Assembly (NCBI GenBank): GCA_963818475.1
Contig: CAWFSF010000006.1
Span: forward strand, 1,696,001 to 1,760,000
Source of the DNA: Nitrospirota bacterium
Lineage (GTDB): Bacteria > Nitrospirota > UBA9217
DNA length: 64,000 nucleotides
Direction: 5' to 3'
Notes under the pieces: model-generated
What the model saw: only the letters and a program-made list of their open reading frames with translations
What the model was told of the DNA's origin: nothing
Database searches by the model: none
Made by a program: the position numbers and the translations under genes
Shown here: one piece after another, positions 2,987 to 35,853 of the stretch
Layout of the letters: every line of letters begins with the position of its first letter
How positions within the stretch are numbered: the first letter of the stretch is position 1

Positions 2987-5029
2987 TTATGTGAATATCA
3001 GCAGCACAATGATCGTCACGAACGAATAAATGAGATACACCTGAATACGGCCATGCTGCATTCTTCCGATCCTCCGCGATATCCAGAAGCTCGCATCCGC
3101 GATCGGTTGATAGATCCATATCCAAAAGCGGTCCCGTATCCGGAGATGGTACTGCAGTCGCTCAGGAAAGGCACGGTGCGCGGTCTCCGGAAGCAGACGT
3201 ACGTGCTCTTTTATGCTGAAGAGAAAGCCGAAGATCCTGCGCAGGGGCATGGAAAAGGAAGTGGCAGTGTACTGCATCCGGTTGGTTACTTTCGCAAAAC
3301 CGCAGTCCCAGAGCGGCACCCGCCTGATGGCCCCGGGGCGGGTATGCAGAAGGAGGTACGTAACGACCACGACGGCAAGAATCCCCACGAAAACCAGGGG
3401 CGCTGAATAGGACGCCCGCTCATGGGAGATCGGGGTCAGCCACATCCAGCCGAACCCCGCAGCCGAGGACGAGATGGTGTCGCCCACCAGTAATTCGGTG
3501 ATGGGGTCCATCAAGTTGATCAGGTAGGTCGGGAAAACGCCGAGTCCGAAGCAGGTAACCGCGGTCAGCAGCATGCCGATGCGCATGGACCAGCGCACCT
3601 CATGCACCCCTGCGAGATGATGACCGCGCCGGTGCCCCAGGAACGTCACGCCGAAGGCCTTCACGAAGCAGGCAGCCGCAAGCGCGCTCGTAAGCGCAAG
3701 GAGCGCGGCCCCCAACGGGATGAGCATGTTCAGGAGCGGACTGGGAAGCGCGGGAGAAAGCAGAAAGGCCTGATACGTCAGCCATTCCGATACGAATCCG
3801 TTAAAAGGCGGCAGCGCGGAGATCGATACGCACCCGACAAGAAAGAGCGCGGCTGTCCAGGGCATGAAACGGATAAGCCCGCCCATCTCTTCCATGTTCC
3901 GTTCGTGCGTGGCGTGGAGCACCGCGCCCGCTCCCATGAAGAGAAGCCCCTTGAACATGGCATGGTTCAGCGTGTGATAGAGACCTGCAACGAGCGCCAG
4001 GGCCGCCAGCAGGGTCATATCGAAGGAGGTGAAGATCATCGCAAGGCCGATGCCGATCAGGATGATGCCGATGTTCTCCACGGAATGATACGCGAGGAGC
4101 CTCTTCAGATCATGCTGCATCAGGGCATAGAGAACGCCCAGGACCGCGGAAACCAGACCGAACACCAATACGAGAGCGCCCCACCACCAGGGAAATACGC
4201 CGATGAGGTCGAAGATGACCCGCACCATTCCGTAGATGGCGGTCTTGAGCATCACGCCGCTCATGAGCGCGGAGACGTTCGAAGGCGCCACCGGGTGGGC
4301 CTCGGGCAGCCAGATGTGAAGCGGGATCACGCCGGCCTTGGCGGAGAAACCGAAGAAGGCCAGCAGAAAGGCGGCTGTTGCCAGCCCCGCAGGGAGTTCC
4401 GTCTCGCGCATGGCGTCGAAGGTATAACTTTGGAACCCCGAGAACCCGGTCGCAAGCCCTGCCATGATACCGAAGGAGAGAAGGATCGCGATTGCGCCCA
4501 CATGGGCCACGACGAGATAGAGGAACGCGGCCCTTCTGTTCTCAACGCGTTCGTCTTCAAAGAGGACCAGAAAATACGAGGCCGCAGCCATCAATTCCCA
4601 GGCGATAAGAAAGAACAAGGCGTCGTCAGCCAGGACGACCAGCTGCATCCCGATGAGGAAAACGGAATAAAATACCACCAGGCTGGTGATCGGCCGGTGC
4701 CCCAGAAAACCTTTGACGTATCCGATGGAATAGATGGAGACAAACGTGGACAGAAGTCCGACGACGATGAGAAAAAAACCCGACAGGACGTCAAGCCTCA
4801 GATGAAACGGAAGATCGGGAAGACCGAGGGGAATGACGAGCTGGAATGTGCCGCCGCTTGCCACGGTCCAGACACCCGCAGCCGTGGCAAGAAAAGAGGC
4901 AATGGTTGCGAAGGAAAAACCGACGGTAATCAAGAGTCGCTGAGAATGGCGCAGCACCGGCGTCAGTGCGAGCAGAAGCAGAAACACTGCGAACGACGAG
5001 GCTATGAGGCTAACCGGTGCAAGAACCAC
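2987..5029 (-). CDS. hyfB: HyfB-like antiporter-type subunit, cluster A
   Basis: KAGVIPLHIWLPEAHPVAPS, LKRLLAYHSVEN, PPFNGFVSEW, WDCG and MQYTA motifs; 680 aa. Confidence 0.92.
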   Translation of the reverse strand: MVLAPVSLIASSFAVFLLLLALTPVLRHSQRLLITVGFSFATIASFLATAAGVWTVASGGTFQLVIPLGLPDLPFHLRLDVLSGFFLIVVGLLSTFVSIYSIGYVKGFLGHRPITSLVVFYSVFLIGMQLVVLADDALFFLIAWELMAAASYFLVLFEDERVENRRAAFLYLVVAHVGAIAILLSFGIMAGLATGFSGFQSYTFDAMRETELPAGLATAAFLLAFFGFSAKAGVIPLHIWLPEAHPVAPSNVSALMSGVMLKTAIYGMVRVIFDLIGVFPWWWGALVLVFGLVSAVLGVLYALMQHDLKRLLAYHSVENIGIILIGIGLAMIFTSFDMTLLAALALVAGLYHTLNHAMFKGLLFMGAGAVLHATHERNMEEMGGLIRFMPWTAALFLVGCVSISALPPFNGFVSEWLTYQAFLLSPALPSPLLNMLIPLGAALLALTSALAAACFVKAFGVTFLGHRRGHHLAGVHEVRWSMRIGMLLTAVTCFGLGVFPTYLINLMDPITELLVGDTISSSAAGFGWMWLTPISHERASYSAPLVFVGILAVVVVTYLLLHTRPGAIRRVPLWDCGFAKVTNRMQYTATSFSMPLRRIFGFLFSIKEHVRLLPETAHRAFPERLQYHLRIRDRFWIWIYQPIADASFWISRRIGRMQHGRIQVYLIYSFVTIIVLLIFT

Positions 5030-5090
5030 GTTGCAACCTCGCTCTAGTTCTCTGGCGCGTTAACGAAACGATCTCCCTATAAACCCTTTT

Positions 5091-5175
5091 ATCCGCAGAT
5101 TTTCGCAGATGAACGCAGATTTTAAAAATTAGAAATCAGAATTATCACTCCGCACAATCTGCGAAATCTGCGGAT
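5091..5175. repeat. 9/10-mer-unit palindrome
   Basis: ATCCGCAGATTTTCGCAGATGAACGCAGAT...ATCTGCGAAATCTGCGGAT. Confidence 0.75.
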
Positions 5176-5213
5176 ACTCTGTTGAACTGAGCTGTTGCAT
5201 CTGCTCCACCAAC

Positions 5214-5739
5214 TCATCTCGTGCAGTTATCAATGATCTTGGAAAGCCCGAGCAGGATGGCAGTCGGCGTCGGCGGGCAGCCGGGGATATGACCATCCAC
5301 CGGAATCACGTTCCCCACGCCATCGGTCACTGCATAGCTTCCCTGGTAAATACCGCCGTTCATTGCACAATCCCCGCAGGCAACAACGAGCTTCGGGTCC
5401 GGCATCGGCACTGTAGGTCCTTCTGAGCGCCAATTCCATCTGTCGAGCTACCGGGCCGGTTACCAGCAGCAGATCTGCATGGCGCGGCGAAGCGACAAAA
5501 TCGATGCCGAACCGCTGGATATCGTAGATGGGATTCATGAGCGCAATGCCTTCCCACTCACAGGCATTGCAGGACCCCGCATCCACAAATCTGATCCTGA
5601 GTGATCTATGGAAGATTGTATCAATTTTCCGCTGGAAGTCAATGATCTTCGCCGCCTGATCGGGCGTGACATTGAATCCCTCAGGAAAAGGGATGGCCTT
5701 CTTTTTTGTAAATACGTTTTTGAATATCTCTTTCAGCAT
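5214..5739 (-). CDS. ehrS: Ehr small subunit (NuoB/HyfI-like), cluster B; frameshift near 5410
   Basis: DAGSCNACE and ASPRHADLLLVTG in one frame; VACGDCA and IPGCPP in the next. Confidence 0.85.
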
Positions 5740-5767
5740 AGTTTAACCTTGTACTCAGTGTTTATCT

Positions 5768-5802
5768 GACCCTGGACCCTGAACCCCGACCCCTGAACCC
5801 TG
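5768..5802. repeat. heptamer tandem repeat (about ACCCTGA x5)
   Basis: gaccctggaccctgaaccccgacccctgaaccctg between the large- and small-subunit genes. Confidence 0.6.
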
Positions 5803-5807
5803 CCGTT

Positions 5808-7376
5808 CTACATATCCGTTCCCGAGTACGACAGATTAAAACTCTTATTGCACAAGGGGAAATCCGGCACGATGTTGCCATGCACGGCGAAGGGCACCGC
5901 CGGCCAGTTGCAGTATGAAGGCGATCGGAGTTTCACCCTGAGCGGCTTGCCGTCCCTGTCAGCCATGACCCAGTAGAACAGCGAACCCCGCGGCGTTTCA
6001 ACATACCCTAAAGCGGAGGCATAAGCCGGCACTGCTTTAAGCGGTACGGCCAGTTCGCCTTTGTAACCGCTTTCCATCAGCGCCTGGATCATGGAGATCG
6101 AGCACTCCGTTTCCTCTGCCCTGATCATCATGCGTGCGAGCACATCGCCCTGTTCATACGTGTGGGCCTCAAATATCAGCCTGTCGTAGAGCAGATGCGG
6201 ATGGGATTTCCTGATATCATCGGGCAGTCCCGAGGCGCGTGCGGCCACTCCCGTGACCCCCAGTTTTCGGGCGATGTCCTTGGACAGCCGGCCGGTGTTC
6301 GTGATCCGTTCCATGTGAGAGACTGACCCGATCAGGAGCTGCATAAGGTCCTTGTATTCCTTCGTAGCCCAATCCAGGGTCTTCAGGATATCATCGGCCT
6401 GAGCGTAGACATCCCGCGTGACGCCGCCCACGACGTTCACCCCGCGCAGAAACCTGCTGTTGGTCAGCCGCTCGTTCAGCTGCATGAGCCGTTCTTTGAT
6501 GACCGCTCCCTTGGCGTACCCAACGGCCAGTCCCGTTCCCGCGCACATGTACCCGATATCGCCGATGTGGTTGTACAGGCGCTCAAGTTCAAGGACCAGT
6601 GTTCTGACGGCTGCTGCTTTTTCCGTGATCTCGATGCCCATCATCCGCTCGACGGCCATGCAGTATGCTGCTCCATGGGAAAAGGAAGACGTGCCGGACA
6701 CACGCTCGGCGAGCCTGACACCATCGATGAAGCCAAGTCGCTCAAACTGCTTTTCCGTGCCTTTGTGGGTGTAGAACAACCGCGGCTCAAGAAAGAAGAT
6801 GGTTTCCCCGATAGCGCTGAACCGGAAATGGCCGGGTTCGATAATGCCGGCATGCACCGGGCCGACCGGGATCTGGACGATTCCCTCGCCCGTGACCTCC
6901 AGAAAGGGATGGGGTACCTTGATCGCCGTCCCCTCGCCCCACTCTTTTTTCTCCGGATCGGAGATGCTCCAATCCTTGCGGAGCGGATGGCCGCCTGCGG
7001 GAAAGGCCTCGTGAAATACAAGCCTGCGCGGGTCGGGATGCCCGATGGGAACGAGTCCGAGGAGGTCGCTGATCTCCCGTTCGTACCAGTGAGCAGCCGG
7101 GATCATCGGCGTGAGAGAGGGAAATGACGCAACGTCCTCTTTCACCGGCAGAACAATAAACGTGAAGGTGTCGGCGCCGGGGATCGTAAACACGGCATAG
7201 ATCCGGAACAATCCGTCCTTTTCCCGTTCGTCCGCTGCGAACATGAGCCGCAGGAGCGCATGCTGCTTCATGACGAGCGAGACGCAGACCTCCCTGAAAT
7301 CAGTGCTGTCGACTTCGACGTAGACTTCATTGAGCTGGTCCCGCCTGGCACGTCCTTTATTGAAAATACTTTCCAT
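5808..7376 (-). CDS. ehrL: Ehr large subunit (NuoC+NuoD/HyfG-like) lacking NiFe cysteines, cluster B
   Basis: WYEREI, GPVHAGIIEPGHFRF, ELERLYNH and ETPRG motifs; L1 region reads ERVSGTS and the C-terminus PDFPLCNKSFNLSYSGTD, with no CxxC pairs. Confidence 0.9.
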   Translation of the reverse strand: MESIFNKGRARRDQLNEVYVEVDSTDFREVCVSLVMKQHALLRLMFAADEREKDGLFRIYAVFTIPGADTFTFIVLPVKEDVASFPSLTPMIPAAHWYEREISDLLGLVPIGHPDPRRLVFHEAFPAGGHPLRKDWSISDPEKKEWGEGTAIKVPHPFLEVTGEGIVQIPVGPVHAGIIEPGHFRFSAIGETIFFLEPRLFYTHKGTEKQFERLGFIDGVRLAERVSGTSSFSHGAAYCMAVERMMGIEITEKAAAVRTLVLELERLYNHIGDIGYMCAGTGLAVGYAKGAVIKERLMQLNERLTNSRFLRGVNVVGGVTRDVYAQADDILKTLDWATKEYKDLMQLLIGSVSHMERITNTGRLSKDIARKLGVTGVAARASGLPDDIRKSHPHLLYDRLIFEAHTYEQGDVLARMMIRAEETECSISMIQALMESGYKGELAVPLKAVPAYASALGYVETPRGSLFYWVMADRDGKPLRVKLRSPSYCNWPAVPFAVHGNIVPDFPLCNKSFNLSYSGTDM

Positions 7377-7378
7377 AC

Positions 7379-8860
7379 TTATTTCATTCCCAGAACCAGC
7401 ACGCAGGTCCTGATCGTCCCGTCAATGAACCCGGGGATCCTGATGCCCATCACGATGATTGCAGCAGCCATGGCGATCATGACCACATTGCCAAGTATGT
7501 TGCCCATGCCGAAACGCGACGCCTGCCAGCGTGCGGTGTTCGCTGCATCCATTGCGACCGGGGCGCCGAAAAGCATCTTTCCGAACGCGGAAAGCACGCC
7601 GTAGAAAACCAGCGCTATAAAGAAAAGGAAAACGCCTACCACGGGCCACAGACCCTTGTCCACGGCAGCCTTCAGGATCGTAAACTCGCTCATGAAAATA
7701 TTGAACGGCGGCGTTCCAGACAGGGCCAGGGCGCCGATGAACGTGAGCGTCCCGAGGAGCGGCATGGTTGAAAGCACCCCGTTCACATTCGCGATGTTCG
7801 TGGAGCCGAACCGCGCCTGGATCTTCCCGGAAGCAAAGAACATAAGGGGTTTCGCAAAGGTATTGCTCAGGACATGGAGCAATGCGCCATAAACGCCGAC
7901 GGGCCCGCCGATACCGACACCAAGAACGATGATGCCCATGTGCTCGACGCTGCTGTAGGCAAGCAGCCGCTTGAAGTTGTTCTGGACCAGGATGAATACG
8001 GCCGCAATACCCACGGAGATGAGGCCGAAAATGATGAGCAGGTTGCCGGTGAAGACATCGCCGGTCGACGGTTCCACGATCGAGACAAAGCGCATGATGG
8101 CGTAGAACGCGGTCCAGCCGGGCAAGAGAGCGCTGATCGGGCTCGGAGCCTCACCCTGAGCATCAGGGAGCCAGTTGTGTATTGGCGCAAGTCCGGCCTT
8201 GGTCCCGTATCCCACGAGCACAAAGATGAACGCGAGCTTCATCGTCTCGGGGTTCAGCTTCGGAGCAATGCCTTTGAGCACCGTCCAGTTCAACGCGCCT
8301 TCAGCGCCCGTGACCGCGGTCGAGGCATAGTAGGTAATGAACGTGCCGAGGAGCGCGAACGTGATACCCACGGTGCAGAGGACGATATATTTCCACGCAG
8401 CCTCAACAGCGAGCGGCCGCTTGCGAAAACCGAGTCCGATGAGAAGCGCCGAGACGATCGTCGTTGCCTCCATCCCGATCCACATGAGCGCGAGGTTGTT
8501 CGCCATGGACACCAGCAGCATGGTGAACACAAAAATATGAAAAAGGCCGTAATAACGCCGCATGCCACGGAAATCAATAAGCCCGGCAATAAGCTCATTA
8601 TCGAGATAACCGATCGAATAAACCGCCGATGCCAGGCTGTACAGGATCATCAACCCCATGATGTAGGCCGAAAATGCATCCATGAAGAGCGCGCCCTTTG
8701 CCGCGGTGACGGGCGTGGACACCGCGCCGATGATGATCGGTGCGGCATAGGCCGCAAGCGCAACAATACCAGCAAGGTTCGCATAGCCGATCAGCCGCGG
8801 ACTCTTCACCACGTAGCATGCCATGGCGGTTACCAAGGGAATGAGCAATATGATTAGCAC
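7379..8860 (-). CDS. hyfF: HyfF-like antiporter-type subunit, cluster B
   Basis: EATT, EAAWKY, GYGTKAGLAP and KRLLAYSSVEHMG motifs; GTG start at 8860 (the longer ORF start lies inside the repeat). Confidence 0.88.
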   Translation of the reverse strand: MLIILLIPLVTAMACYVVKSPRLIGYANLAGIVALAAYAAPIIIGAVSTPVTAAKGALFMDAFSAYIMGLMILYSLASAVYSIGYLDNELIAGLIDFRGMRRYYGLFHIFVFTMLLVSMANNLALMWIGMEATTIVSALLIGLGFRKRPLAVEAAWKYIVLCTVGITFALLGTFITYYASTAVTGAEGALNWTVLKGIAPKLNPETMKLAFIFVLVGYGTKAGLAPIHNWLPDAQGEAPSPISALLPGWTAFYAIMRFVSIVEPSTGDVFTGNLLIIFGLISVGIAAVFILVQNNFKRLLAYSSVEHMGIIVLGVGIGGPVGVYGALLHVLSNTFAKPLMFFASGKIQARFGSTNIANVNGVLSTMPLLGTLTFIGALALSGTPPFNIFMSEFTILKAAVDKGLWPVVGVFLFFIALVFYGVLSAFGKMLFGAPVAMDAANTARWQASRFGMGNILGNVVMIAMAAAIIVMGIRIPGFIDGTIRTCVLVLGMK

Positions 8861-9010
8861 GTTGGTCGTTTCACTCCGTTGCACTCCGTACTCCATTGGA
8901 AATTGGAAAATGAAGATTGGAAATTTCAAATTTTAAAGCTACAGCACGTGTTCTTTTTAACCTTCAATTTCCAATCTTCAATTTTCAATTCGGCATTCAA
9001 AGAATGCCGG
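8861..9010. repeat. inverted heptamer-array element without a gene (ATTGAAG/ATTGGAA arms)
   Basis: On the sense strand: stop, GC hairpin, left arm, about 30-nt spacer, complementary right arm, GGAG...CGACC, start. Confidence 0.8.
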
Positions 9011-9670
9011 CTATCCTTTCAGCACCGTCAGTTTGTCCAGATCGGCCGTAGCAAAGGTCCGCCGGATCTGCACCGCAAAGATGCCGAGAATGATCACGCC
9101 CATCAGCATATCAAACAACACCCCGAGTTCGATGATCGTCGGCATCCCGAAGGTCAGGGAAAAACCGGCGAGGAACAGGCCGTTTTCCATGAACAGCAAT
9201 CCCATGACCATCGTCAGGGCCTTCTTTCTCGTGATCATGATAAAAAGACTGATAAGGATCACCGCAATCGCTATCTGGAGCACATTCCGGGAAAATCCCG
9301 TGACCGTGATGCCGGTCTTGAGCGATGCATACACCACGGCAACAAGGATGCTCGATACGGCAAGCGAAAGCGTATTGCTGATAGAGGGCTGTATAATATG
9401 GGTCACCCGCATCTGGCGCACGATCTTTCGCAGAAAAAGCGGGATCAAAACACCCTTTGTCGCAAGCGTGAGCAGGGCCGCGACATAGAGATGCGACTCG
9501 TCAACGAGGATTGCCACCACGGCGACAAGGCATGCCAGGAGCCAGGAGTTGATCGTATATGCCTTCACATAGGATTCGATGCTCTTAAAAGCATTCAGCG
9601 TAACCGCTGTCAGAAGAAGACCGACAGAGATGAAATCAACTATGGAATAAGCCTCGAGCCATGATTTCAT
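9011..9670 (-). CDS. hyfE: HyfE-like subunit, cluster B
   Basis: MENGLFL and FGMPTIIELGVLFD motifs; ATG 9670 after GGAG. Confidence 0.88.
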   Translation of the reverse strand: MKSWLEAYSIVDFISVGLLLTAVTLNAFKSIESYVKAYTINSWLLACLVAVVAILVDESHLYVAALLTLATKGVLIPLFLRKIVRQMRVTHIIQPSISNTLSLAVSSILVAVVYASLKTGITVTGFSRNVLQIAIAVILISLFIMITRKKALTMVMGLLFMENGLFLAGFSLTFGMPTIIELGVLFDMLMGVIILGIFAVQIRRTFATADLDKLTVLKG

Positions 9671-9726
9671 GTCGCTGCGCTCCATTGGAAATTGAAGATT
9701 GGAAATTGGAAATTTAAAATTTGCGA
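9671..9726. repeat. heptamer right arm plus RBS; direct repeat of 10093-10141
   Basis: 37 identical bp at 9671-9707 and 10093-10129. Confidence 0.85.
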
Positions 9727-9731
9727 GACCC

Positions 9732-10091
9732 TCATTTATTCTTTTTTGCCGTGATGAGCGATTTAGCGATAATATTAATAAGTTGTTTTGTCTCTTCAAT
9801 GAGCGCGTGCAAATCGATATCCTGGAGCATTTCTGCTCTCTGCAATAGTTTTAACCAGTAATGTGATTCGCGCAGTTCCTTCAGTACTATCTGAAGTTTG
9901 TGGATGAAATCAGCCTTGCTCGACGCACCACACGCTTCTTCATAATTGGCGCCTGTTGAGGTCGCGGACCGGAATAACTGTCCTGCCACGTGTTTGCCAG
10001 GCAATGAGGCATCAAGTTTCATGGTGAGCTTGAATATCGACGCACCATAATCGAGTAAGCGTTCTGCAAGCTTATTGGCCTGGTTTTCCAT
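9732..10091 (-). CDS. four-helix-bundle protein (TIGR02436 / 23S-IVS-protein family)
   Basis: QLFRSATSTGANYEEA, SKADFIHKLQIVLKELRESHYWL and ETKQLINI signature; 119 aa. Confidence 0.9.
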   Translation of the reverse strand: MENQANKLAERLLDYGASIFKLTMKLDASLPGKHVAGQLFRSATSTGANYEEACGASSKADFIHKLQIVLKELRESHYWLKLLQRAEMLQDIDLHALIEETKQLINIIAKSLITAKKNK

Positions 10092-10279
10092 GGTCGCTGC
10101 GCTCCATTGGAAATTGAAGATTGGAAATTTTAAATTTGCAATGCTCTCACTTTTTATCATCGTGACAATGGATCAGACGAATCAGATTGATACTCAACTG
10201 ACGATCATTACGCCGTCCATTTTAAAATTTCCAATCTTCAATTTCCAATCTTCAATCCGACACGCCCCGCGTGTCGGCC
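10092..10279. repeat. inverted heptamer-array element upstream of the four-helix-bundle gene
   Basis: GC hairpin CCGACACGC..GCGTGTCGG, then (ATTGAAG ATTGGAA)x2, a spacer, and the complementary arm ending GGAGCGCAGCGACC-ATG. Confidence 0.85.
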
Positions 10280-11197
10280 CTATTTCCCCATCATGATATG
10301 CGTCACCAGCGAAAGGAATGCGAGAACAAATGCTCCGCCGAGAATGGACGGCAGCTGAAAAAATCTCACCTTTGCCCGCGTCGACTCCACAACCGCCATC
10401 GCGATGCAGAGGCCGAGCATCTTGAGAGCATAGATGCCGGCAGGCAGGGCGAGCGCGCCGGCGCCAGTTGCCTGTGCAATGCCCACCGGGAGGAAGATGT
10501 CGATCGCCAGCGTGAACAGGACCATCTGTTTTATATAATGCGCCCATTCCATGAGCGCAAGGTATCGTCCCGAGTATTCGAGGATCATGCCCTCATGGAT
10601 CATGGTGAGCTCCAGATGGGTGTCGGGATTATCCACCGGCACCCTCCCGGTCTCCGCGGTGATCGCAACCATCAGGGCTGCAAGCGCCAGCAGATGCGAC
10701 GGAGAGTACAGCGCACGCTGCGCATCTGCTATGCGGGCAATGTTCGTTGAACCGGCGGTAATGGCCGCTGTAAAAAGTGCGAGCATCATCATCGGCTCTA
10801 CCAGGATCGCCACCGTCATCTCCCGGCTGCTCCCCTCGCCCCCGAAGACGGTGCCGGCATCAAGCCCGGCAAGGGCCATAAAGAACCGCCCCAGCGCAAA
10901 GACAGCGATGAGGGCAATGACATCTCCCATCATGCTGAAGACCGACTGCGTCGTAAGAACCGGGACGAGCAGGGCTGCGGCGGCGGCAGACGTAAAAACG
11001 ATGTACGGCGTGGCCGTGAAGATCCACGAAGTCACGCTGGAGACAACCATGCCCTTCTTGAACAGACGCAGCAGATCATAGTAGGGCTGCAGCACGCCGG
11101 CACCGATCCTGCCCTGCATGTTCGCCTTCAGCTTCTTGATCACCCCGTTCACGAGGGGCGAGAAGAAGATGACTATGAGAAACTGAAAATATTCCAT
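10280..11197 (-). CDS. hyfC: HyfC-like subunit, cluster B
   Basis: QPYYDLLRLF, GSSRE and AETGRVPVDNPDTHLELTMIHE motifs. Confidence 0.9.
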   Translation of the reverse strand: MEYFQFLIVIFFSPLVNGVIKKLKANMQGRIGAGVLQPYYDLLRLFKKGMVVSSVTSWIFTATPYIVFTSAAAAALLVPVLTTQSVFSMMGDVIALIAVFALGRFFMALAGLDAGTVFGGEGSSREMTVAILVEPMMMLALFTAAITAGSTNIARIADAQRALYSPSHLLALAALMVAITAETGRVPVDNPDTHLELTMIHEGMILEYSGRYLALMEWAHYIKQMVLFTLAIDIFLPVGIAQATGAGALALPAGIYALKMLGLCIAMAVVESTRAKVRFFQLPSILGGAFVLAFLSLVTHIMMGK

Positions 11198-11266
11198 AGA
11201 GTCTGTACACGAGAGTCCTGAGCTAATTGCTATTAAAAATCCATGTAAAAAGGCCAAACAATTATC

Positions 11267-11366
11267 GCCACGAAGGCACGAAGACACAAAGAAATTCCTT
11301 ACGATTTATGATTTATAAAACCTTTAAAGAGCCAGGCCTCTCTTCGAGTCTTCGTGCCTTCGTGGC
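11267..11366. repeat. 9-mer-unit palindrome
   Basis: GCCACGAAGGCACGAAGACACAAAG...CTTCGAGTCTTCGTGCCTTCGTGGC. Confidence 0.8.
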
Positions 11367-11388
11367 AAATTGGTACGGTTTGTCCCAG

Positions 11389-13380
11389 TTACGTGCCAAA
11401 TATCAACAAAACGATCAGCGTAATCAAAATATACCCGAGATACAGCTGCAGGCTGCCGGACTGGAGCAGCTTCACTTTACCTGCAGCGGCGTGCACAGCG
11501 CGTGTCACCGGATCATAGACGTATCGTTCGAAGAAAGGCGTGATCTCGCCGCCGTAGTGAATGGACCGCACGAAGAAAGGCTTGATGATATACGAAACCT
11601 TCATATCACGGCTCGGGAGATAGATGCGTTTGTAGATGATCCTGAGCGGTTTGGTAAATGCCGTGGCCGTGTACTGCATGCGCGGCGTTAGCCCGCGGAT
11701 GCCGCAATCCCATGAGTCAGCGTACACGGTCTTTTTCCTGCTGCCCGCGAACCTCACGAAAAAAACGGCCCCGATGAAGATCAGCAGCATGACCCCGGCA
11801 AGCGCAGCGGTCGAGAGCGATGCCGCACCACCGGGAGTTATCAGGATGCCCTGCTGGTCCAGTTCTACCGGGGAGCCCGTAATGGCAAATACTGCGGGAG
11901 AGACCAGCGAAACAGGAATGCTCGGGAAAAGACCGAAGAGAATGCACAGAAGCGCAAGGAGCGCCATACCAGCGATCATCCATGTCGATGATTCCCGAGC
12001 TTCGGTTGCGTGCTCGCTCCGCGCCATGCCGAGGAAGGTTGTGCCGAAGGTCTTGACAAACCCGGCGGCAACGATCGCTCCGGTAAGCGCCAGAGCCGCT
12101 CCTCCCAAGGGCGAAACGATCTTTGCAAGAACGGATGAAGACTTGAAACCGAGCAGGAGCGACTGGTAGGTGAGCCACTCGCTCACGAACCCGTTCAGCG
12201 GCGGAAGGGCCGTTATGGCGAGGGCGCCCACGAGGAACAGAGCACCCGTCCAGGGCATGGTCTTCAGGAGCCCGCCCAGTTTCTCCATGTTCCGCGTCCG
12301 TGCGGCGCTTACGACCGACCCCGCTCCCAGGAACAGGAGGCTCTTGAAGAGGGCGTGGTTCACGGCGTGGTAAAGCGCAGCCGCAAGGGCAAAGCTTGAC
12401 AAAGCAAGCATCCCGCTGCTCCGGAACATCATGGATGCTCCGATGCCCAGCAGGATGATACCCACATTCTCCACGCTCGAGTAGGCGAGAAAGACCTTGA
12501 GATCGTTCTCCATGATCGCGTAGAGGATGCCCAGGACCGCCGAGCTCGCGCCGACCACGATGACCGTAATCCCCCACCACTCGGGCCCCGCTCCCAGCAC
12601 GTCCAGGGCGATCCGAAGAAAGCCGTACACTGCGGTCTTGATCATGACGCCGGACATGAGGGGTGTGATGTTCGAAGGCGCAACCGGATAGGCCCGGGGG
12701 ATCCAGGTATGGAGCGGGATGATGCCCGCCTTGGTGCCGAAGCCGATGAGCGCGAAGATGAATACCAGAGATCTGACGTCCTGCGGAAGCGCTGCTGCAG
12801 CGGCGCGCATGGACGAGAACTCCATGCTGCCGGTGTAATGATACAGCACGAGGAAGAGAACGATGATGAAGGCCGTTCCGATGTGGGTCATCACTACGGT
12901 AAACAGGCCTGCTTTTGCCGACTCTGCATTCCGGTCGAAGACCACGAGAAAATAGGCGGCCACTGCCATGGTTTCCCAGCATACCAGAAAGGTTATGATG
13001 TTCGCCGAAAGGACCACACCGTACATGCTGAGAACGAGGATGTTATAGAAGAACCCCAGGTAGCCGGCGTTCCTGATCCCTCGGGTAAAACCGATGGAGT
13101 AAAAAGAGACAGCGATGGTGATAAGGGATATGAGGACGACAAAGAAGCCCGAGAGCGCGTCGCAGGAGAAGGCAAAACTGAAGATCGAGGTTATGGGGAT
13201 TGTCGTGCCGATAAAAGGCGGAGTAAAGAGAAGATACCCGCCTGCAGCGAGAAAGAGGAGTGCGCCTGTCGTGGAGAAGAGATAGCTGAAGTTTCGTACT
13301 TTCGAGAGCGGGAGCTGTGAAGCGACTGCGCCGGAAAGAAAAAAGATAATGCCCAGAGATAATATATTTGCAACGTCCAT
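11389..13380 (-). CDS. hyfB: HyfB-like subunit, cluster B
   Basis: KAGIIPLHTW, AYSSVEN, PPLNGFVSEW, WDCG and RMQYTA motifs; 663 aa. Confidence 0.9.
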   Translation of the reverse strand: MDVANILSLGIIFFLSGAVASQLPLSKVRNFSYLFSTTGALLFLAAGGYLLFTPPFIGTTIPITSIFSFAFSCDALSGFFVVLISLITIAVSFYSIGFTRGIRNAGYLGFFYNILVLSMYGVVLSANIITFLVCWETMAVAAYFLVVFDRNAESAKAGLFTVVMTHIGTAFIIVLFLVLYHYTGSMEFSSMRAAAAALPQDVRSLVFIFALIGFGTKAGIIPLHTWIPRAYPVAPSNITPLMSGVMIKTAVYGFLRIALDVLGAGPEWWGITVIVVGASSAVLGILYAIMENDLKVFLAYSSVENVGIILLGIGASMMFRSSGMLALSSFALAAALYHAVNHALFKSLLFLGAGSVVSAARTRNMEKLGGLLKTMPWTGALFLVGALAITALPPLNGFVSEWLTYQSLLLGFKSSSVLAKIVSPLGGAALALTGAIVAAGFVKTFGTTFLGMARSEHATEARESSTWMIAGMALLALLCILFGLFPSIPVSLVSPAVFAITGSPVELDQQGILITPGGAASLSTAALAGVMLLIFIGAVFFVRFAGSRKKTVYADSWDCGIRGLTPRMQYTATAFTKPLRIIYKRIYLPSRDMKVSYIIKPFFVRSIHYGGEITPFFERYVYDPVTRAVHAAAGKVKLLQSGSLQLYLGYILITLIVLLIFGT

Positions 13381-13681: not shown

Positions 13682-14170
13682 ATGGCCCAAAAAACAGCTA
13701 TGGTCGCGGAAATCGTCGACAACCTGAGGCGTGTTTTTCAGGTGGTGAACGAGCAAGCGAAAAAGGCGGAGCTCAAAACCGGGCTTACCGGTCCGCAGCT
13801 CTGGGCGATCAAAGTCATATCCAAGGAATCGCCGATCATGGTTTCCGATATTGCACGCCGCATGTACCTTCACCCCGCGACCGTGGTCGGGATCCTCGAC
13901 CGCCTCGAACTCCAGGGCCTTGTCACGCGAGTCCGTTCTCTGACGGATCGCAGAATTGTACACCTCGAGTTAACCGCGAAAGGGCAGGCCTTGGTGAATA
14001 AATCTCCTGAAGTCGCCACAGGCACCCTGGTCGCAGGGCTTGAGAAGCTGTCTGTGATCGAACTCAAGGGCATCTCGGGCGGCATGGAACGGATCGTAAA
14101 AATTCTCGGCGCACAGGGGATCCCGCCGCAGCTCATTCATTCGCCGGGAGTAAATACGCCTTCGGAATAA
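13682..14170 (+). CDS. MarR-family transcriptional regulator
   Basis: GLTGPQLWAI, HTH, LDRLELQGLVTR and DRR wing motif; AAGGAG RBS. Confidence 0.92.
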   Translation: MAQKTAMVAEIVDNLRRVFQVVNEQAKKAELKTGLTGPQLWAIKVISKESPIMVSDIARRMYLHPATVVGILDRLELQGLVTRVRSLTDRRIVHLELTAKGQALVNKSPEVATGTLVAGLEKLSVIELKGISGGMERIVKILGAQGIPPQLIHSPGVNTPSE

Positions 14171-14249
14171 ACAGCCCTTACGGAAACGAGTATGGTAGCC
14201 GCAAGAGTGCGGTGTTGGGCCGGCGTTGAGTGATCATATCTCTTCATCC

Positions 14250-14407
14250 CAACCCGGACAAACCGGAAAACAGTTTAGCCACAAAAGTCACAAAGAACAC
14301 AAAGGAAAACGAAAACCATAACAGTTTTTAACACATTCCAGCTTTTCTCTGTGCCCTTTGTGCTTTCTGTGGCAAAATATTCTTGCCATTTTGAGTTGAA
14401 TTTGATT
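14250..14407. repeat. composite repeat: conserved outer frame with an inner 9-mer palindrome (14278-14373)
   Basis: Outer ends match 56411-56574. Confidence 0.75.
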
Positions 14408-14435
14408 CTTGAGTAACTACCCAGGAGTACCGGCA

Positions 14436-16475
14436 ATGCCCGAAGGATTGGAAATGCTCTCCGGACTGTTCATCGCTTCGATCGTTCTGCTCGCGATCGC
14501 CGGATTGCTGCCGCTTTTCTTCCCGCGTTCGAAGCGGCTCGCGGCATTATCCTTCTCAATAGGCGTGCTCGCCGGAATGGTGCTCGCGGTTTTCTCCATC
14601 GGCGCGCTGCTGAACAACGTGCCGCTCAGATTCGAGTTGCCCGCGGGCCTCTTCCCGCCCGAGCCTCCGGCATTCGTGATCGACGCGCTCTCTGCCTTTT
14701 TCTGCCTCATCCTTTCCATCCTGCTGACCGCGATCTCGCTCTATTCGATCCGCTACCTGGACCATTACGACGGCACCCCCGTCGGGGTCCTGGCCGGGTT
14801 CTTTCACTTCATCGCCCTCTCCATACTGATGATTTTCTCGGCAGACAACAGCTTCCAGTTCCTGATCGCCTGGGAGCTGATGACGCTCTTCGCCTTTTTC
14901 CTCGTGGTGTATGAATACCGGAAGGAGCAGGCCGTGCGCGCGGGCGTGTACTACCTCAGCGTGACCCATTTCGGCACCCTGTTCCTGATCGCCATGTTCA
15001 TCCTCCTGCAGAAGTTCTCCGGGACCATGCTCTTTTCCCAGACCGCCGCTCAGCTCGGGAACTTCCCGCGCTGGTCGCTCACCTTCGTTTTCATCGCTTC
15101 GCTCGTCGGCTTCGGATGCAAGGCGGGCGTTTTCCCGTTCCATATCTGGCTGCCGCTGGCCCACCCGGTGGCGCCGTCGAACGTGTCGGCGTTCATGTCG
15201 GGCCTGCTGATCAAAACGGGGATCTACGGCCTGCTCAGGATCCTGCTGATCGTCCATGGCTCGGCGGAGCTGTGGTGGGGCGTTCTGCTGCTCGTGGTCG
15301 CATCGGTCTCGGCCCTGCTCGGCATCATGTATGCGCTCATGGAACACGATCTCAAGCGGCTGCTCGCCTACTCCAGCATCGAGAACATCGGGATCATCCT
15401 GATCGGCGTGGCCATGGCCTTGATCTTCAGCGCCTCCGGCATGCCCGTGCTCGCCGGGTTCGCCCTCACCGCCGGGCTCTTCCACACACTGAACCATGCG
15501 GTGTTCAAGGCGCTCCTCTTCCTCGGCGCGGGCGGCGTGCACAGCGTGACGCATACGCGGGACATGGAGAAACTGGGCGGCCTCGCCCGGCTCATGCCCT
15601 GGACCGCGGCCGCGTTCCTGGTCGGCGCGCTCTCCATCTCGGCCATCCCGCCGCTCAGCGGTTTTGTGAGCGAATGGATGTCCTTTGTTTCGATCATCCA
15701 GGTCTACCGGATCGATCAGGTGCCGCAGGTTCTCCGGATCACCGTCCCCCTGGCGGGCGCCATGCTTGCGCTCACCGGCGCGCTTGCAGCAGCCTGCTTC
15801 GTGAAGGTCTACGGCATCGTCTTCCTCGGCACGCCGCGCTCCGAAAAGGCCCTGACGGCGAACGAACTGCCGGTCCCCATGCGGCTGGCGCAGCTCCTGC
15901 TTGCCCTGGTATGTATCGTGACCGGGGCGTTCCCGTTCCTCGTGATCAACGCCACCCGGGACATCCGAACGGCCTTCTTCGGGCCCGATGCGCTCATCGC
16001 GGCGGGTCCCCGGTTCCTTGCCGCGCCCGGCGACGCGGGTTCCATCTCGACGCTCGCGGTGTTCGGCGCGTTATTCCTCTTCCTGGCGCTCGGGCTGCTC
16101 CTTACGCGTGCCTTTGGGAAGGGAAGAACATCTGAAAATATCACCTGGGCCTGCGGCGGTGAGGCAGGCGGCAGGCACCAGTACACGGCAACGGGATTTT
16201 CGAAACCGATCCGCAGGATCTTCAGCGCCCTCTACCAGCCCAAAAAACAGATCGTCGTGGATACGACCGCCGAGAACAAATACCAGATCCGGTCCATCAA
16301 GTTCCACGGCATGACGCAGAACGTCTTTGAACGTTACCTCTATCTCCCGCTCATCGACGTGGCCAACAAGCTCTCCCGGAAGGTCCTCGCCGGGCAGGAA
16401 GGCAACATCAACGGCTACCTGGCCTACATCTTCCTGCTGTTCATCCTGATGCTGCTCGCGGGAGGCGCGCGATGA
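14436..16475 (+). CDS. hyfB: HyfB-like subunit, cluster C
   Basis: KAGVFPFHIWLPLAHPVAPS, LKRLLAYSSIEN, WACG and QYTA motifs; AGGAG RBS before ATG 14436. Confidence 0.9.
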   Translation: MPEGLEMLSGLFIASIVLLAIAGLLPLFFPRSKRLAALSFSIGVLAGMVLAVFSIGALLNNVPLRFELPAGLFPPEPPAFVIDALSAFFCLILSILLTAISLYSIRYLDHYDGTPVGVLAGFFHFIALSILMIFSADNSFQFLIAWELMTLFAFFLVVYEYRKEQAVRAGVYYLSVTHFGTLFLIAMFILLQKFSGTMLFSQTAAQLGNFPRWSLTFVFIASLVGFGCKAGVFPFHIWLPLAHPVAPSNVSAFMSGLLIKTGIYGLLRILLIVHGSAELWWGVLLLVVASVSALLGIMYALMEHDLKRLLAYSSIENIGIILIGVAMALIFSASGMPVLAGFALTAGLFHTLNHAVFKALLFLGAGGVHSVTHTRDMEKLGGLARLMPWTAAAFLVGALSISAIPPLSGFVSEWMSFVSIIQVYRIDQVPQVLRITVPLAGAMLALTGALAAACFVKVYGIVFLGTPRSEKALTANELPVPMRLAQLLLALVCIVTGAFPFLVINATRDIRTAFFGPDALIAAGPRFLAAPGDAGSISTLAVFGALFLFLALGLLLTRAFGKGRTSENITWACGGEAGGRHQYTATGFSKPIRRIFSALYQPKKQIVVDTTAENKYQIRSIKFHGMTQNVFERYLYLPLIDVANKLSRKVLAGQEGNINGYLAYIFLLFILMLLAGGAR

Positions 16476-17431
16476 TTGTTCTCGTTCTGCTCAGTACGCT
16501 CCAGGTCCTGACGCTGCTTTTGGTGGGACCGTTGTTTGCGAACTTCATCAGGATCGTCCATGCCCGGCTCCAGGGAAGGCAGGGGCCGCCGCTTTTGCAG
16601 GGACACTACGATATTTTCAAGCTGCTGCAGAAGGACCGCATCTATTCGGTCCGGTCGTCCTTCGTGACGCGCATCACGCCGGCGATCAACTTCGCCGCGG
16701 TCTGCGTCGCTGCTCTGATGGTCCCGGTGCTCAGCACGACGGTCCCCTTCCATTTCGCCGGCGACTTCATCGTATTCATCTACCTCTTCGGCCTGGCGCG
16801 TTTTTTAACGGCGCTCACCGGGCTTGACGCGGGCTCCACCTTCGGCGGCATGGCCTCGAGCCGCGAAATGACCCTCTCGTCTTTGGCCGAGCCGGCGATC
16901 CTGCTCGGGTTCATCGTGATCTCGACCGCGGCCGGGAGCATGGACATCTCGGTCATGACAGCCCAACTCATCCACCTGCCCGGCAAGTACGTGAATCCCT
17001 TTTTCATCCTGACGCTCCTTTCCTTTTCCATCGTCATCATGGCCGAGAACGGCAGGGTGCCCTTCGACAATCCCGCGACGCACCTGGAGCTCACCATGGT
17101 CCATGAGGGCATGGTGCTTGAACTTTCCGGCAGGGACCTCGGCGTCTTCCAGTGGGCGCACGCGTCGCGGCTCCTGGCGCTCACGGTCGTGGCCTTGGAC
17201 GTCTTTTTCCCCTTCGGCCTCGCAACGGAAGTGACAACCTACGCTCTGATGATCTCGCTCGGCGCATTACTCCTGAAACTCTTCATCGCCGCTGTTGTTA
17301 TAGCATACGTCGAGACCGCGAACGCCAAGTACCGCCTCTTCCGCCTTCCCGATCTGCTTACCCTGGCTTTCGTGTTCTCGCTCATTGCGCTGATCGCCTA
17401 CTATGCTACGGAGGTGGCCGGTGCCCGTTGA
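16472..17431 (+). CDS. hyfC: HyfC-like subunit, cluster C
   Basis: SSRE and AENGRVPFDNPATHLELTMVHE motifs; ATGA overlap. Confidence 0.9.
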   Translation: MIVLVLLSTLQVLTLLLVGPLFANFIRIVHARLQGRQGPPLLQGHYDIFKLLQKDRIYSVRSSFVTRITPAINFAAVCVAALMVPVLSTTVPFHFAGDFIVFIYLFGLARFLTALTGLDAGSTFGGMASSREMTLSSLAEPAILLGFIVISTAAGSMDISVMTAQLIHLPGKYVNPFFILTLLSFSIVIMAENGRVPFDNPATHLELTMVHEGMVLELSGRDLGVFQWAHASRLLALTVVALDVFFPFGLATEVTTYALMISLGALLLKLFIAAVVIAYVETANAKYRLFRLPDLLTLAFVFSLIALIAYYATEVAGAR

Positions 17432-18078
17432 TATCCTGCTGGAATCGCGTTTGATCAACCTGATCTATGTCTTCGCCCTGGCCGTGGTTATCTGGGCCGT
17501 GGCGAGTTCGGGCATCCCGTCGATGATCCGTCTCTTCGGGCTCCAGTCCTTTCTGCTCGCCTGCGGCACGGCGCTCATCGCCCGCGTGGCCAAGTGAACC
17601 GCACATGTTCTACGCGTCCCTGTTCACGATCGTGTTCAAGGTCATACTGATCCCGCTGGTGCTGACCTACATCATGAACCGGCTCAAGATCAGGAAGGAG
17701 ATCGAGGACTTCATCAACATTCCCTCGGCCCTCATCGTCTGCTCGATCCTGACGATCATCGCCTACGCCGTGACCCTGCGCGTGATCCAGGCAAAGGCAA
17801 CCTTCAACGTGGCCGGCGTGTTCGCCGTGGCCGTCGCGATCATGCTGATCGGTTTTTTCATCATGGTAAACCGGAAGAAGACCCTGACCCAGATCATCGG
17901 CCTCATGTTCGTCGAGAACGGCGTGTTCCTGGCCGCCGTGGCCATGACTTACGGGATGCCGCTGCTCGTCGAGTTCGGCATCTTCTTTGACGTGTTCGTG
18001 GCCATCCTCATCATGGGGATCATGCTGTTCAAGATCTGGGACACCCTTTCGGACATGGACTACAAGGAGAATCTGTGA
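17421..18078 (+). CDS. hyfE: HyfE-like subunit, cluster C; frameshift near 17593
   Basis: GGAGG RBS plus GTG; QIIGLMFVENG and YGMPLLVEFG motifs. Confidence 0.82.
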
Positions 18079-21112: not shown

Positions 21113-21223
21113 TCTCGCGGAGACGCGGAGACGCAGAGAAGTCAACGGCTTGAAACAAAGGATAAGAAATTGACCTTCTTTTATTTAAGGATTTCCTTGG
21201 CAACCTTTGCGCCTTTGCGAGAG
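21113..21223. repeat. 9-mer-unit palindrome
   Basis: TCTCGCGGAGACGCGGAGACGCAGAG...CTTTGCGCCTTTGCGAGA. Confidence 0.7.
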
Positions 21224-23516: not shown

Positions 23517-23951
23517 CTCTCGCAAAGCTCGCAAAGGGAACCTTGTATCCATAACTCTTTATTCATGATTCGTCATCCCCGTGGAAACGGGGATCCAGTA
23601 AAGCAAACCTTTTTTAACCGCTAATGTACGCGAATGAACGCTAATCAAAAAAGAGTACTTATTACTTTATTCGCGTTAATTAGCGTTAATCAGCGGTTCC
23701 TTCGGTTTTGACACCGTAATAAGTATCCCAGGCAAATAGACACAAAAGGGTTAAAGAAATCCTTAGTTTTTTAATGCCGCACTTTTGAGCTTTCTGTGCA
23801 TTTTGTGGCAATTTTCATTTTTTACAACTTCATCAGCCTTAAAAATCCTGGATTCCCGCCTGCGCGGGAACGACGGACTGGGGAAATGGCCTTTTAAAAC
23901 CAAGCCGCTTTTTTTTGGGTTTCCTTTGCGACCTTTGCGTGCTTTGCGAGA
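23517..23951. repeat. nested stack of inverted-repeat elements
   Basis: Outer CGCAAAG arms; an ATCCCC/ATTCCCGC hairpin pair at 23571-23598 and 23848-23875; inner palindromes at 23616-23698 and about 23731-23809. Confidence 0.75.
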
Positions 23952-32676: not shown

Positions 32677-32753
32677 ACCGCGGAGACGCTGAGACGCCGA
32701 GAAGATCTAATTATTTTAACGTGCCGCTCTCTGCGCCTCCGCGCCTCGGCGGT
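32677..32753. repeat. 9-mer-unit palindrome
   Basis: ACCGCGGAGACGCTGAGACGCCGAG...CTCTGCGCCTCCGCGCCTCGGCGGT. Confidence 0.8.
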
Positions 32754-35700: not shown

Positions 35701-35853
35701 GAAGTTATTGAGTGCCATGTCCGGGTCAGCAGTACGGGAAAGGACGGGAAAGAAGAGCGGCAGGACCTCGCTGCAGACGCCTTCGCCGAGACCGGTCCGG
35801 AGATACTCAAGGTTCTTCAGCGCCTGCGCTAGGTCCTCTATCCCGAAGCGCAC
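32767..35853 (-). CDS. glnE: bifunctional glutamine synthetase adenylyltransferase/deadenylase; several frameshifts
   Basis: Two nucleotidyltransferase domains (MGKLGGRELNFSSDVDL, VGKLGGRELTYASDLD), RVDLRLRPEG, GGIREIEF and GGLVDIEF across frames. Confidence 0.92.

Follow-up and report, generated by a model that had tools for sequence, protein, structure and literature searches.

The closest described system to the element reported here is the intervening sequence (IVS) of 23S rRNA genes with its S23p open reading frame (ORF), described for Coxiella burnetii and, as cited in the same paper, for Leptospira. According to the available text of that paper (PMC4990558), the Coxiella IVS is 428 nt long and its inverted repeats pair into a stem; directly before the S23p ATG stand three tandem heptamers (GACAGAT), whose number varies among strains, and the RNase III cut falls at the first repeat, within the stem. 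The same text reports that the S23p protein appears not to be made and to be decaying, and it cites an old idea that the IVS ORF once served mobility. A second relative is Avd, the accessory protein of diversity-generating retroelements (DGRs), described in the available part of bioRxiv 10.1101/2023.10.23.563531 as a pentameric barrel like the S23 proteins, with Avd-binding stem-loops in the DGR RNA. The role of the 23S IVS and of the S23p or four-helix-bundle (4HB) proteins has been open since about 1990, and the only annotation that the genes carry is 'four helix bundle protein'. Here we analyse a 4HB gene and the heptamer repeats beside it in a 64,000-nt stretch of a Nitrospirota genome (GenBank assembly GCA_963818475.1, contig CAWFSF010000006.1, positions 1,696,001 to 1,760,000; hereafter the window), where they lie between the hyfC and hyfE genes of an Ehr/Hyf-like operon. 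On balance we think it probable that this region is an IVS-type selfish cassette, made of a PF05635 gene and inverted heptamer arrays, that rides in operon transcripts.

An initial annotation, made from the sequence of the window, had described hyfC followed by a GC hairpin, heptamer arms, the 4HB gene and hyfE. Every element of this layout is present and in place on the minus strand of the window, which is the sense strand. Two relatives from other genomes, L001 and L002 (84% and 65% identity of the 4HB protein), lie in operons orthologous to that of the window and are used for comparison below. The hyf gene names are approximate, as Pfam gives NuoH-, NuoK- and NuoL/M/N-like membrane subunits and a fused 30-kDa/49-kDa large subunit. 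The features of the locus are as follows:

10280..11287, minus strand: hyfC-like membrane subunit (NuoH family), upstream host gene; Pfam NADHdh, E 1e-45; stop codon TAG at 10282-10280
10257..10279, minus strand: GC-rich stem-loop between the hyfC stop and left arm L1, the 5' clamp of the cassette; nine pairs in the minimum free energy (MFE) and centroid folds
10221..10256, minus strand: left arm L1, five heptamers, ATTGAAG and ATTGGAA alternating and the last ATTTTAA; from repeat pairs, Tandem Repeats Finder (TRF) and the printed sequence
10135..10220, minus strand: spacer, loop of the L1-R1 hairpin; inverted-repeat pair with 86 nt between the arms
10092..10134, minus strand: right arm R1 (10106-10134) plus GGAGCGCAGCGACC, ribosome-binding module of the 4HB gene
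9732..10091, minus strand: 4HB gene, 119 aa; PF05635 and TIGR02436
9671..9719, minus strand: right arm R2 (9684-9719) plus GGAGCGCAGCGAC, ribosome-binding module of hyfE
9011..9670, minus strand: hyfE-like (NuoK-like) gene, downstream host gene; Pfam Oxidored_q2, E 9e-5, under the cut-off
8852..9010, minus strand: gene-less sibling hairpin at the hyfE-hyfF junction; repeat pair, printed sequence and fold z -4.7
7379..8851, minus strand: hyfF-like antiporter-type subunit; Pfam Proton_antipo_M, E 3e-50; start set by comparison with L002

R1 is complementary to L1 at 29 of 29 positions. Its module GGAGCGCAGCGACC runs into the ATG of the 4HB gene, so that 14 nt separate the end of the arm from the start codon and the tandem heptamers stand directly before the ORF. 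R2 is complementary to L1 at 81% over 36 nt and at 93% over 29 nt. The two right arms and their modules form a direct repeat (9671-9720 and 10093-10142, 92% identity over 50 nt) with a spacing of 422 bp; as the initial annotation had noted, its first 37 bases (9671-9707 and 10093-10129, read from the alignment output) are identical. The second copy leads straight to the hyfE ATG at 9670; the 4HB gene and hyfE are thus both served by copies of one duplicated GGAG module. The gene-less layout claimed for the hyfE-hyfF junction is also there, namely a GC clamp (8991-9010), a left arm (8953-8990), a 14-nt gap and a right arm (8895-8938), followed by GGAGTAC-GGAGTGCAAC-GGAGTGAAAC ahead of the hyfF GTG at 8851. 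The clamp at 10257-10279 is not called a terminator because no T-run follows it. Comparable hairpins adjoin the left arm in L001, L002 and three further relatives (L004, L005 and L051) and at 8991-9010 of the window; the form CGNCAT...ATGNCG, then AATTG, is the left end in these five loci and twice in the window, with differing upstream genes. Within 8700-10400 the repeats are the heptamer arms only, with no template/variable repeat pair seen, and no real match to an rRNA or other Rfam family was obtained (a single microRNA model matched at E 0.54). The 86-nt spacer is not conserved in L001 or L002. It was considered as a relic of an older 4HB gene and rejected as such: its best alignments to the gene and to the tail of the gene were equalled by 869 and 912 of 1000 shuffles.

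This anatomy resembles that of the 23S IVS in several respects. Both carry a PF05635 4HB ORF in sense to the host transcript and measure about 0.4 kb (422 bp from repeat to repeat here, against the 428 nt given for Coxiella); both have inverted repeats, which form a stem in the IVS and are able to pair here, and in both tandem heptamers of variable number stand directly before the ORF. They also have in common the lack of a transposase, a patchy distribution and a suspected horizontal transfer. Unlike the IVS, which sits in helix 9, 25 or 45 of 23S rRNA, the cassette of the window lies between two protein genes, the NuoH-like and the NuoK-like one; it has a clamp and a GGAG module that would serve the cistrons on either side, and a right arm on both sides of the gene. 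Finally, its protein is under purifying selection, whereas the Coxiella protein is described, in the text available, as seemingly unexpressed and decaying.

Membership of the 4HB protein in the S23/IVS family is clear. It scores 60 bits against PF05635 (cut-off 33.8, E 3e-16) and 85.3 bits against TIGR02436 (cut-off 24, E 3e-24), and its nearest solved relative is BT_0352 (PDB 2RLD, chain 2rld_A, E 4.7e-14), a structure that holds five chains. An AlphaFold model built from 57 sequences (mean predicted local distance difference test, pLDDT, 94.6) places helices at residues 2-24, 30-54, 59-86 and 95-117, which gives a predicted four-helix up-down bundle. In Foldseek, the template modelling (TM) scores of this model were 0.82/0.87 to 2RLD, about 0.8 to 2GSC and 0.66/0.71 to Avd (4DWL), so that the kinship with Avd and with the 23S IVS proteins, stated in the initial annotation, is borne out. 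Avd (4DWL, 8UB7) shares the four-helix-bundle fold (TM 0.66-0.71) and partners a structured RNA; unlike the DGRs, however, the window has no nearby reverse transcriptase (RT) gene or template/variable repeats, and the sequence of its 4HB protein is much nearer to the S23/IVS branch, as the 2RLD match indicates. Compared with its L001 ortholog (L001:341-697), the 4HB gene has 0.071 nonsynonymous (dN) and 1.05 synonymous (dS) substitutions per site, hence a dN/dS of 0.068, close to that of hyfE between the same genomes (dN/dS 0.074, dS 0.47). This pattern indicates that the 4HB protein is under purifying selection and hence functional. The dS of the 4HB gene is about twice that of the adjacent hyfE, which could be the noise of a short gene or the result of conversion from another copy of the cassette.

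Evidence that gene and arms form one unit comes from the relatives. Scanning a genome collection that does not include the source genome with the 4HB protein gave 179 confirmed relatives; the best 80, which were kept, share 50-84% identity with it and represent many phyla of bacteria as well as several lineages of archaea. Nearly every gene among these 80 has (A/G)NTG(C/A/G)AA heptamers up to its ATG and a complementary array just past its stop. Flanks were tested at 76 loci, four being left out for short flanks or runs of N, with the other ORFs of at least 100 aa of the same loci as controls (n=689). A lag of 7 was the best repeat period in both flanks of 64 of the 76 relatives but of only 22 of the 689 controls. 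Ungapped complementarity between the 80 nt upstream and the 110 nt downstream reached a score of at least 10 in 68/76 relatives against 15/689 controls, and of at least 12 in 57/76 against 6/689. This score was used in place of RNA duplex energy, which was dropped as a flank statistic; GC-rich control flanks scored as well (median -37.8 vs -31.3). The arms have a median length of 29.5 nt and are Watson-Crick complementary at 1833 of 2250 positions (81%). Since arms stand on both sides of the gene, the usual layout is a hairpin with repeat arms and with the gene in its loop. Under strict criteria the 80 loci yielded 77 hairpins with such arms, 50 of them around a 4HB gene, 14 gene-less (loops up to 200 nt) and 13 other. 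These counts are lower bounds; with one mismatch or G:U pair in each unit, the GC-rich hairpins of the window escape the strict array and hairpin detectors, and for the window we relied on TRF, printed sequences and folds.

The same unit recurs in unrelated surroundings, as had been proposed for the repeats and gene of the window. The 75 loci with usable upstream flanks represent 56 distinct, unrelated contexts. In 61 loci the upstream neighbour shares the strand of the 4HB gene, in eight it is opposed to it and in 11 it is missing, and the median gap from this neighbour to the 4HB ATG is 52 nt, scarcely longer than an arm. The protein tree disagrees with the phyla: Nitrospirota sequences fall in at least five places and archaeal ones are nested among bacteria, in a quick maximum-likelihood search based on few columns. 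The clade of the window (support 87) joins eight phyla, all with ATTGNAA-type arms. Horizontal spread of the cassette is thus apparent. We also observed two loci, L047 and L065, with nearly identical cassettes and flanks, assigned to Dehalococcoidales and Sedimentisphaerales; either a very recent transfer or a binning error would account for them. The expectation that family members would carry heptamer arms and a duplicated ribosome-binding site held for the arms (the 68 of 76 loci above). As for the duplication, an arrangement of right arm, gene and right arm is limited to the window, L001 and L002; elsewhere among the relatives the ATG comes straight after the left arm, and the right arm lies behind the stop codon.

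A profile built from the proteins of the relatives retrieved more distant PF05635 genes in the same loci, and all seven that were tested reach PF05635 in Pfam (two in L024, three in L077, and one each in L027 and L033). They carry other tandem units, namely GGTGTCG, GGTTCAGG, GGTTCAAG, GCATAGC and AACCCAA. In two of the distant genes the right arm is translated as the C-terminal tail of the protein, and the arrays at L077:5728 are direct, not inverted. L077 (172-10408) has four PF05635 genes of the same orientation in a stretch of 10.4 kb, each with its own repeat unit; these different units in one host show that the unit belongs to the cassette and not to the host. In a plasmid collection a relative was present in 31 records, mostly of Nostoc and Planktothrix. 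Among eight copies fetched, picked across genera, six have clear inverted arms and two (Anabaena cylindrica and Bernardetia) have arms in direct or mixed order; the inverted-arm units are AATTCAA, AATCCCC/AATCGTA, ATGAAGG, AATTCGC, a 14-mer in Treponema, and TTTAGAT. Four of the eight cassettes lie within defence operons (DISARM, helicase-methylase, cas2-cas1 and DUF1156-HEPN): on plasmids L082, L083, L084 and L088 they stand at drmD / an MmeI-type enzyme, helicase / methylase, cas2 / cas1 and DUF1156 / a HEPN gene. Phage records gave two unannotated matches.

The orthologous operons make it possible to follow the cassette over time. The window, L001 and L002 have the same order of clamp, left arm, non-conserved loop, right arm with GGAG, gene, right arm with GGAG, and hyfE, and the hyfE product of the window is 94% identical to that of L001 and 71% to that of L002. 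The hyfE-hyfF hairpin is present in the window and in L001 and absent in L002, where the hyfE TAA is followed by 5 nt and the next ATG; at hyfB-hyfC, too, L002 has only 2 nt between the genes. In the window the hyfE-hyfF insert measures 159 nt, in L001 it is similar, and it includes a new GGAG ahead of hyfF. This difference of the window and L001 from L002 is the single filled/empty pair found, and it fits the proposal of a translation-neutral insert made in the initial annotation. That annotation had further suggested that recombination between the two right arms would remove the gene, and had named a comparison of hyfC-hyfE junctions for filled and empty alleles as a check. The geometry would permit such an excision, but the gene is stably syntenic in all three Ehr-type operons seen and none is empty. 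The earlier interpretation is partly supported. The paralogous Ehr-like operon of the window was tried as an empty allele and proved uninformative, its hyfC-hyfE junction being tight and frame-shifted.

What the two right arms point to instead is exchange with retention of the gene. R1 and R2 are 89% alike within L002, and 74-75% alike to their positional counterparts in the window, and one substitution in the GGAG spacer is common to both L002 copies. Likeness is thus greater within a genome than across genomes, which argues for gene conversion between the direct repeats. On this comparison the duplicated right arm and GGAG module of the window is a lineage-specific rearrangement, the copies of which would have been homogenised by gene conversion. 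Recombination at arms also appears to happen elsewhere: at L028:10001-10747 a gene-arm-gene-arm unit is duplicated in tandem, the second copy lacking its first residues, and arm modules are repeated in the flanks of L008, L016 and L063, as expected of unequal recombination. In a deltaproteobacterial locus (L022:724-790) the right arm ends in CAAT-GGAGCAACGCGAC-ATG of an unrelated downstream gene. This module matches GGAGCGCAGCGAC of the window at 10 of 13 bases, so that the ribosome-binding module may travel with the arm.

Repeats and folding of the window were compared with shuffled sequences. A two-unit 14-mer (up to 2 mismatches) has 10 matches in the window, nine of them within 8895-10249, where 0.79 were expected and 100 shuffles gave at most 4; chance is thus excluded for the repeats. 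The sense RNA folds better than shuffles both for the filled cassette (z -3.3, equalled by 0 of 20 shuffles) and for the gene-less hairpin (z -4.7, equalled by 0 of 200). The centroid fold divides L1 between R1 and R2, with the outer part of L1 paired to R2. Pairing of L1 with R2 around the 4HB gene is possible, given the complementarity above; the MFE structure favours L1 with R1.

The mechanism that we propose runs as follows. Units of arms and gene have been passed between distant bacteria and archaea and settle in short junctions between co-directional genes. The cassette would be transcribed as part of the host operon, to judge from its orientation and from gaps too short for a promoter. 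The arms of the transcript are able to pair into an AU-rich stem of about 30 bp with one mismatch per repeat unit, and this stem would form in the cell. By analogy with the 23S IVS stem, for which RNase III cutting is described, RNase III would then cleave it. The clamp after the upstream stop would protect the 3' end of the cistron before it, and translation of the next cistron would restart from the GGAG module that closes the right arm on its outer side; at hyfE-hyfF this GGAG does lie within the insert. With clamp and GGAG module in place, we propose that the insert therefore costs the host little. The analogy with Avd suggests that the 4HB protein most likely binds the repeat arms of its own cassette and helps to maintain or copy it, and spread to new sites would most likely proceed by recombination at the repeat arms after horizontal transfer.

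Several observations weigh against this reading. The analogy with the IVS is incomplete, since the Coxiella S23p protein is, in the text available, seemingly unmade, whereas that of the window is conserved. The cassette stands at one junction in three of three Ehr-type operons seen, with a dS of about 1 or more, and must therefore be old, stable and not recently mobile here. No empty hyfC-hyfE allele was seen in the window and its two available relatives, nor was a near-identical second copy of the cassette, a circle or an excision product. At the one filled/empty site, hyfE-hyfF (filled in the window and L001, empty in L002), no target-site duplication was found, and the GGAG modules could have arisen in place after insertion. 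The MFE structure pairs L1 with R1 and leaves the gene outside the hairpin. Mismatched positions of the arms show no signal of selection on the RNA strand, with 77 G:U-type and 59 A:C-type pairs (p 0.14), and folds of both strands of 12 hairpin regions of the window are mixed in preference: by manual count the strand of the neighbouring genes is better by at least 3 kcal/mol in five, the other strand in two, and the difference is small in five. Weak sigma-70-like hexamers in the arm are not above chance (4 sites against 2.3 +/- 1.6 expected), yet they leave room for a promoter of its own in the arm. Finally, the taxonomy of metagenome bins may be wrong, which weakens the argument for transfer.

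An unlikely alternative, though one with several points in its favour, is a DNA-level miniature transposon. The arms would be terminal inverted repeats, or single-stranded DNA hairpin signals, for a transposase encoded elsewhere, on the model of repetitive extragenic palindromic (REP) sequences and REPINs (REP doublets forming hairpins) with their REP-associated tyrosine transposase (RAYT), or of IS200/IS605-like insertion sequences (IS); the 4HB gene would be a passenger and the RNA hairpin a by-product. Such an element would explain why gene-less inverted-arm copies are common (the strict scan gave 14 against 50 gene-holding ones across the 80 loci, and the window has about ten), why a small clamp hairpin and AATTG mark the left end across several phyla and contexts, the presence and absence at hyfE-hyfF, and the occurrence of a PD-(D/E)XK nuclease-fold gene as cargo of a sister hairpin type (see below). 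However, as the initial annotation had claimed for the 4HB cassette, no transposase, RAYT or integrase stands beside it or the other copies examined in the window, and the single IS there (21320-22602) belongs to the rve type, whose substrates are not hairpins. The hyfE-hyfF site lacks a target-site duplication. The sense bias relative to the upstream gene (61 vs 8), the gene-less hairpins of the window with their purine-rich arm first, and purifying selection on the protein, which one would not expect of an inert passenger, argue in the same direction.

Quite unlikely, in our view, is a host-serving operon punctuation, in which the hairpins would be host-selected processing or stability signals that set the ratio of subunits, the 4HB protein an RNA-binding helper, and nothing selfish or mobile. 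The first Ehr-like operon does hold hairpins or arrays at five junctions (after 2987, 5029-5230, 5739-5808, 8852-9010 and 11287-11389), its clamp and ribosome-binding modules are suitably placed, and a cassette kept at hyfC-hyfE in three genomes with a protein under purifying selection is what a host function would produce. Against this, a single protein clade with a single arm type is found in no fewer than 56 unrelated contexts, across many phyla and also in archaea, and its tree does not track taxonomy; plasmid copies lie inside defence operons; the L002 operon does without hairpins at hyfE-hyfF and hyfB-hyfC, and the paralogous Ehr-like operon without one at hyfC-hyfE, the one junction of it that was read.

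DGR targets have a small GC hairpin beside them, which the boundary clamp recalls. Yet a relative of retroelements, in which an Avd-like protein would bind the hairpin of its own transcript and recruit an RT encoded elsewhere for copying into hairpin-bearing transcribed junctions, as in DGR retrohoming, is very improbable: the fold akin to Avd, the need of the DGR RT for Avd and the binding of stem-loops by Avd (both from the part of the DGR source available), the sense bias and the lack of target-site duplication and transposase would suit it, but the 69 ORFs of the window include no RT, no pair of template and variable repeats was seen, the orientation bias would equally follow from selection for expression, and nothing speaks directly in its favour. 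The transposon and retroelement explanations bear mainly on how the cassette moves.

Coming back to the selfish cassette, a wider generalisation is possible but doubtful. PF05635 genes with their arms would make up a large and so far unrecognised class of mobile cassettes that lack a transposase, of which the 23S IVS would be a special case landed in rRNA, and cyanobacterial heptamers of the short tandemly repeated repetitive (STRR) type and the many orphan tandem-repeat hairpins of operon junctions would be their footprints. An Avd-like oligomer would read its own unit (one type per clade, about 4-5 units per arm) to get the cassette copied into transcribed junctions, the clamp and ribosome-binding modules would keep the operon working, and PDDEXK_3 genes with CCAC(A/G)(A/G)AG arms would ride a similar chassis.

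Other repeat families share single traits with the cassette. REPs have effects on mRNA stability. Like the hairpins described here, REPs, bacterial interspersed mosaic elements (BIMEs), REPINs and miniature inverted-repeat transposable elements (MITEs) are short hairpin-forming inverted repeats in operon junctions, many of them gene-less; unlike them, the arms here consist of tandem 7-10-mers, the unit differs with the clade of the cargo, some hairpins hold a gene in the loop and no RAYT was seen in the window. Cyanobacterial STRRs are tandem heptamers. STRRs and TAACTGA repeats, which occur in cyanobacteria and Bacteroidetes, are intergenic tandem heptamers as well, described as direct arrays, whereas here complementary pairs lie around or beside a gene. 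In Beggiatoaceae, according to the available text of PMC4679880, intergenic TAACTGA heptamers form direct arrays, which often stop shortly ahead of a start codon, and have been proposed to act in translation; that text links them neither to PF05635 genes nor to hairpins, the words 'S23' and 'intervening' occurring 0 times. Integron cassettes, finally, are also small, promoterless and co-oriented with an outside promoter; their attC recombination site is an imperfect hairpin and circle excision is their known route. Unlike them, the cassettes here have no IntI or attI nearby, their arms flank the gene rather than follow it, and they are single and scattered in operons.

In the literature searched, which left aside subscription journals and the entry texts of TIGRFAM and Pfam, nothing was found that ties PF05635 genes outside rRNA to repeat-armed hairpins, gene-less siblings or clamp and ribosome-binding modules. 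The IVS precedent of heptamers before the S23p ORF and the kinship with Avd are already in print, in the available texts of the two sources. What the present results contribute is a unit of gene and heptamer arms in ordinary operons of many bacteria and archaea, including plasmids of cultured Nostoc, Planktothrix and Treponema, with an arm unit that tracks the protein clade and an insert that brings its own clamp and ribosome-binding site. They make the IVS question testable. To annotators they offer an explanation for odd tandem-repeat hairpins in operons and for 'extra' small genes in defence and respiratory operons, and they hint at how retroelements recruited Avd.

The heptamer hairpin is not a private feature of the 4HB gene but one repeat type among many in the window. 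Its own repeat type occurs at two junctions only in the 64 kb, and the 69 ORFs scanned include only one PF05635 gene. About ten further intergenic hairpins, found by TRF and direct reading, have arms made of tandem 7-10-mers of other units; in the gene-less hairpins that were printed, the purine-rich arm always comes first on the strand of the neighbouring genes, as read from the output. They are listed here with the solo arrays:

2890-2963, 45541-45608, 56443-56539 and 61328-61420: hairpins of the CCACGGAG/CCACGAAG/CCACAGAG type
21116-21219 and 32679-32751: CGCGGAG-type hairpins
5094-5170: CGCAGATTT hairpin
23619-23695: CGCTAATGAA hairpin
23519 and 23923: CGCAAAG arms
11300-11330 and 5768-5802: solo arrays

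The hairpins at 5094-5170, 21116-21219, 23519-23949, 23619-23695 and 32679-32751 are built of 8-10-mer units (CGCAGATTT, CGCGGAGA, CGCAAAG and CGCTAATGAA) with one mismatch or G:U pair per unit, and at 23519-23949 one hairpin is nested in another. The solo array at 5768-5802, (GGGTTCA/GGGTCAG)n, lies without a partner arm between the genes of the large subunit and the 20-kDa subunit; the same repeat forms the left arms of the distant 4HB genes at L077:172 and L024:10218. Octamers of the type CCAC(A/G)(A/G)AG, gene-less in the window, make up 2890-2963, 11300-11330, 45541-45608, 56443-56539 and 61328-61420. At L024:13111-13512, between che genes, arms of this octamer bracket a PD-(D/E)XK gene (PF13366 PDDEXK_3, E 2.4e-44), the left arm inside its first codons (MTNHKDTKDTK) and the right arm after its stop. 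From this one example, PDDEXK_3 genes may be a second cargo family on the same hairpin chassis.

Among the 69 ORFs of the window there is no hairpin transposase, RAYT, IS200-type gene, integron integrase or RT (RVT). The IS-like element is a pair of ORFs (21248-22602; helix-turn-helix and rve integrase core) with a 24-nt tandem repeat ahead of it at 21248-21297. Several genes are split, namely GlnE in three ORFs (33155-35982), CobS in two (57375-58135), SelB in fragments (41579-43016) and a shortened RNB-domain gene (37100-38137), and these are either assembly frameshift errors or real pseudogenes. The second, paralogous Ehr/Hyf-like operon lies on the plus strand within 13682-21084 and diverges from the first operon, from which a MarR gene (13682-14170) separates it; it has frame breaks near 17590 and in 18060-19807, and its hyfC-hyfE junction is without a repeat hairpin.

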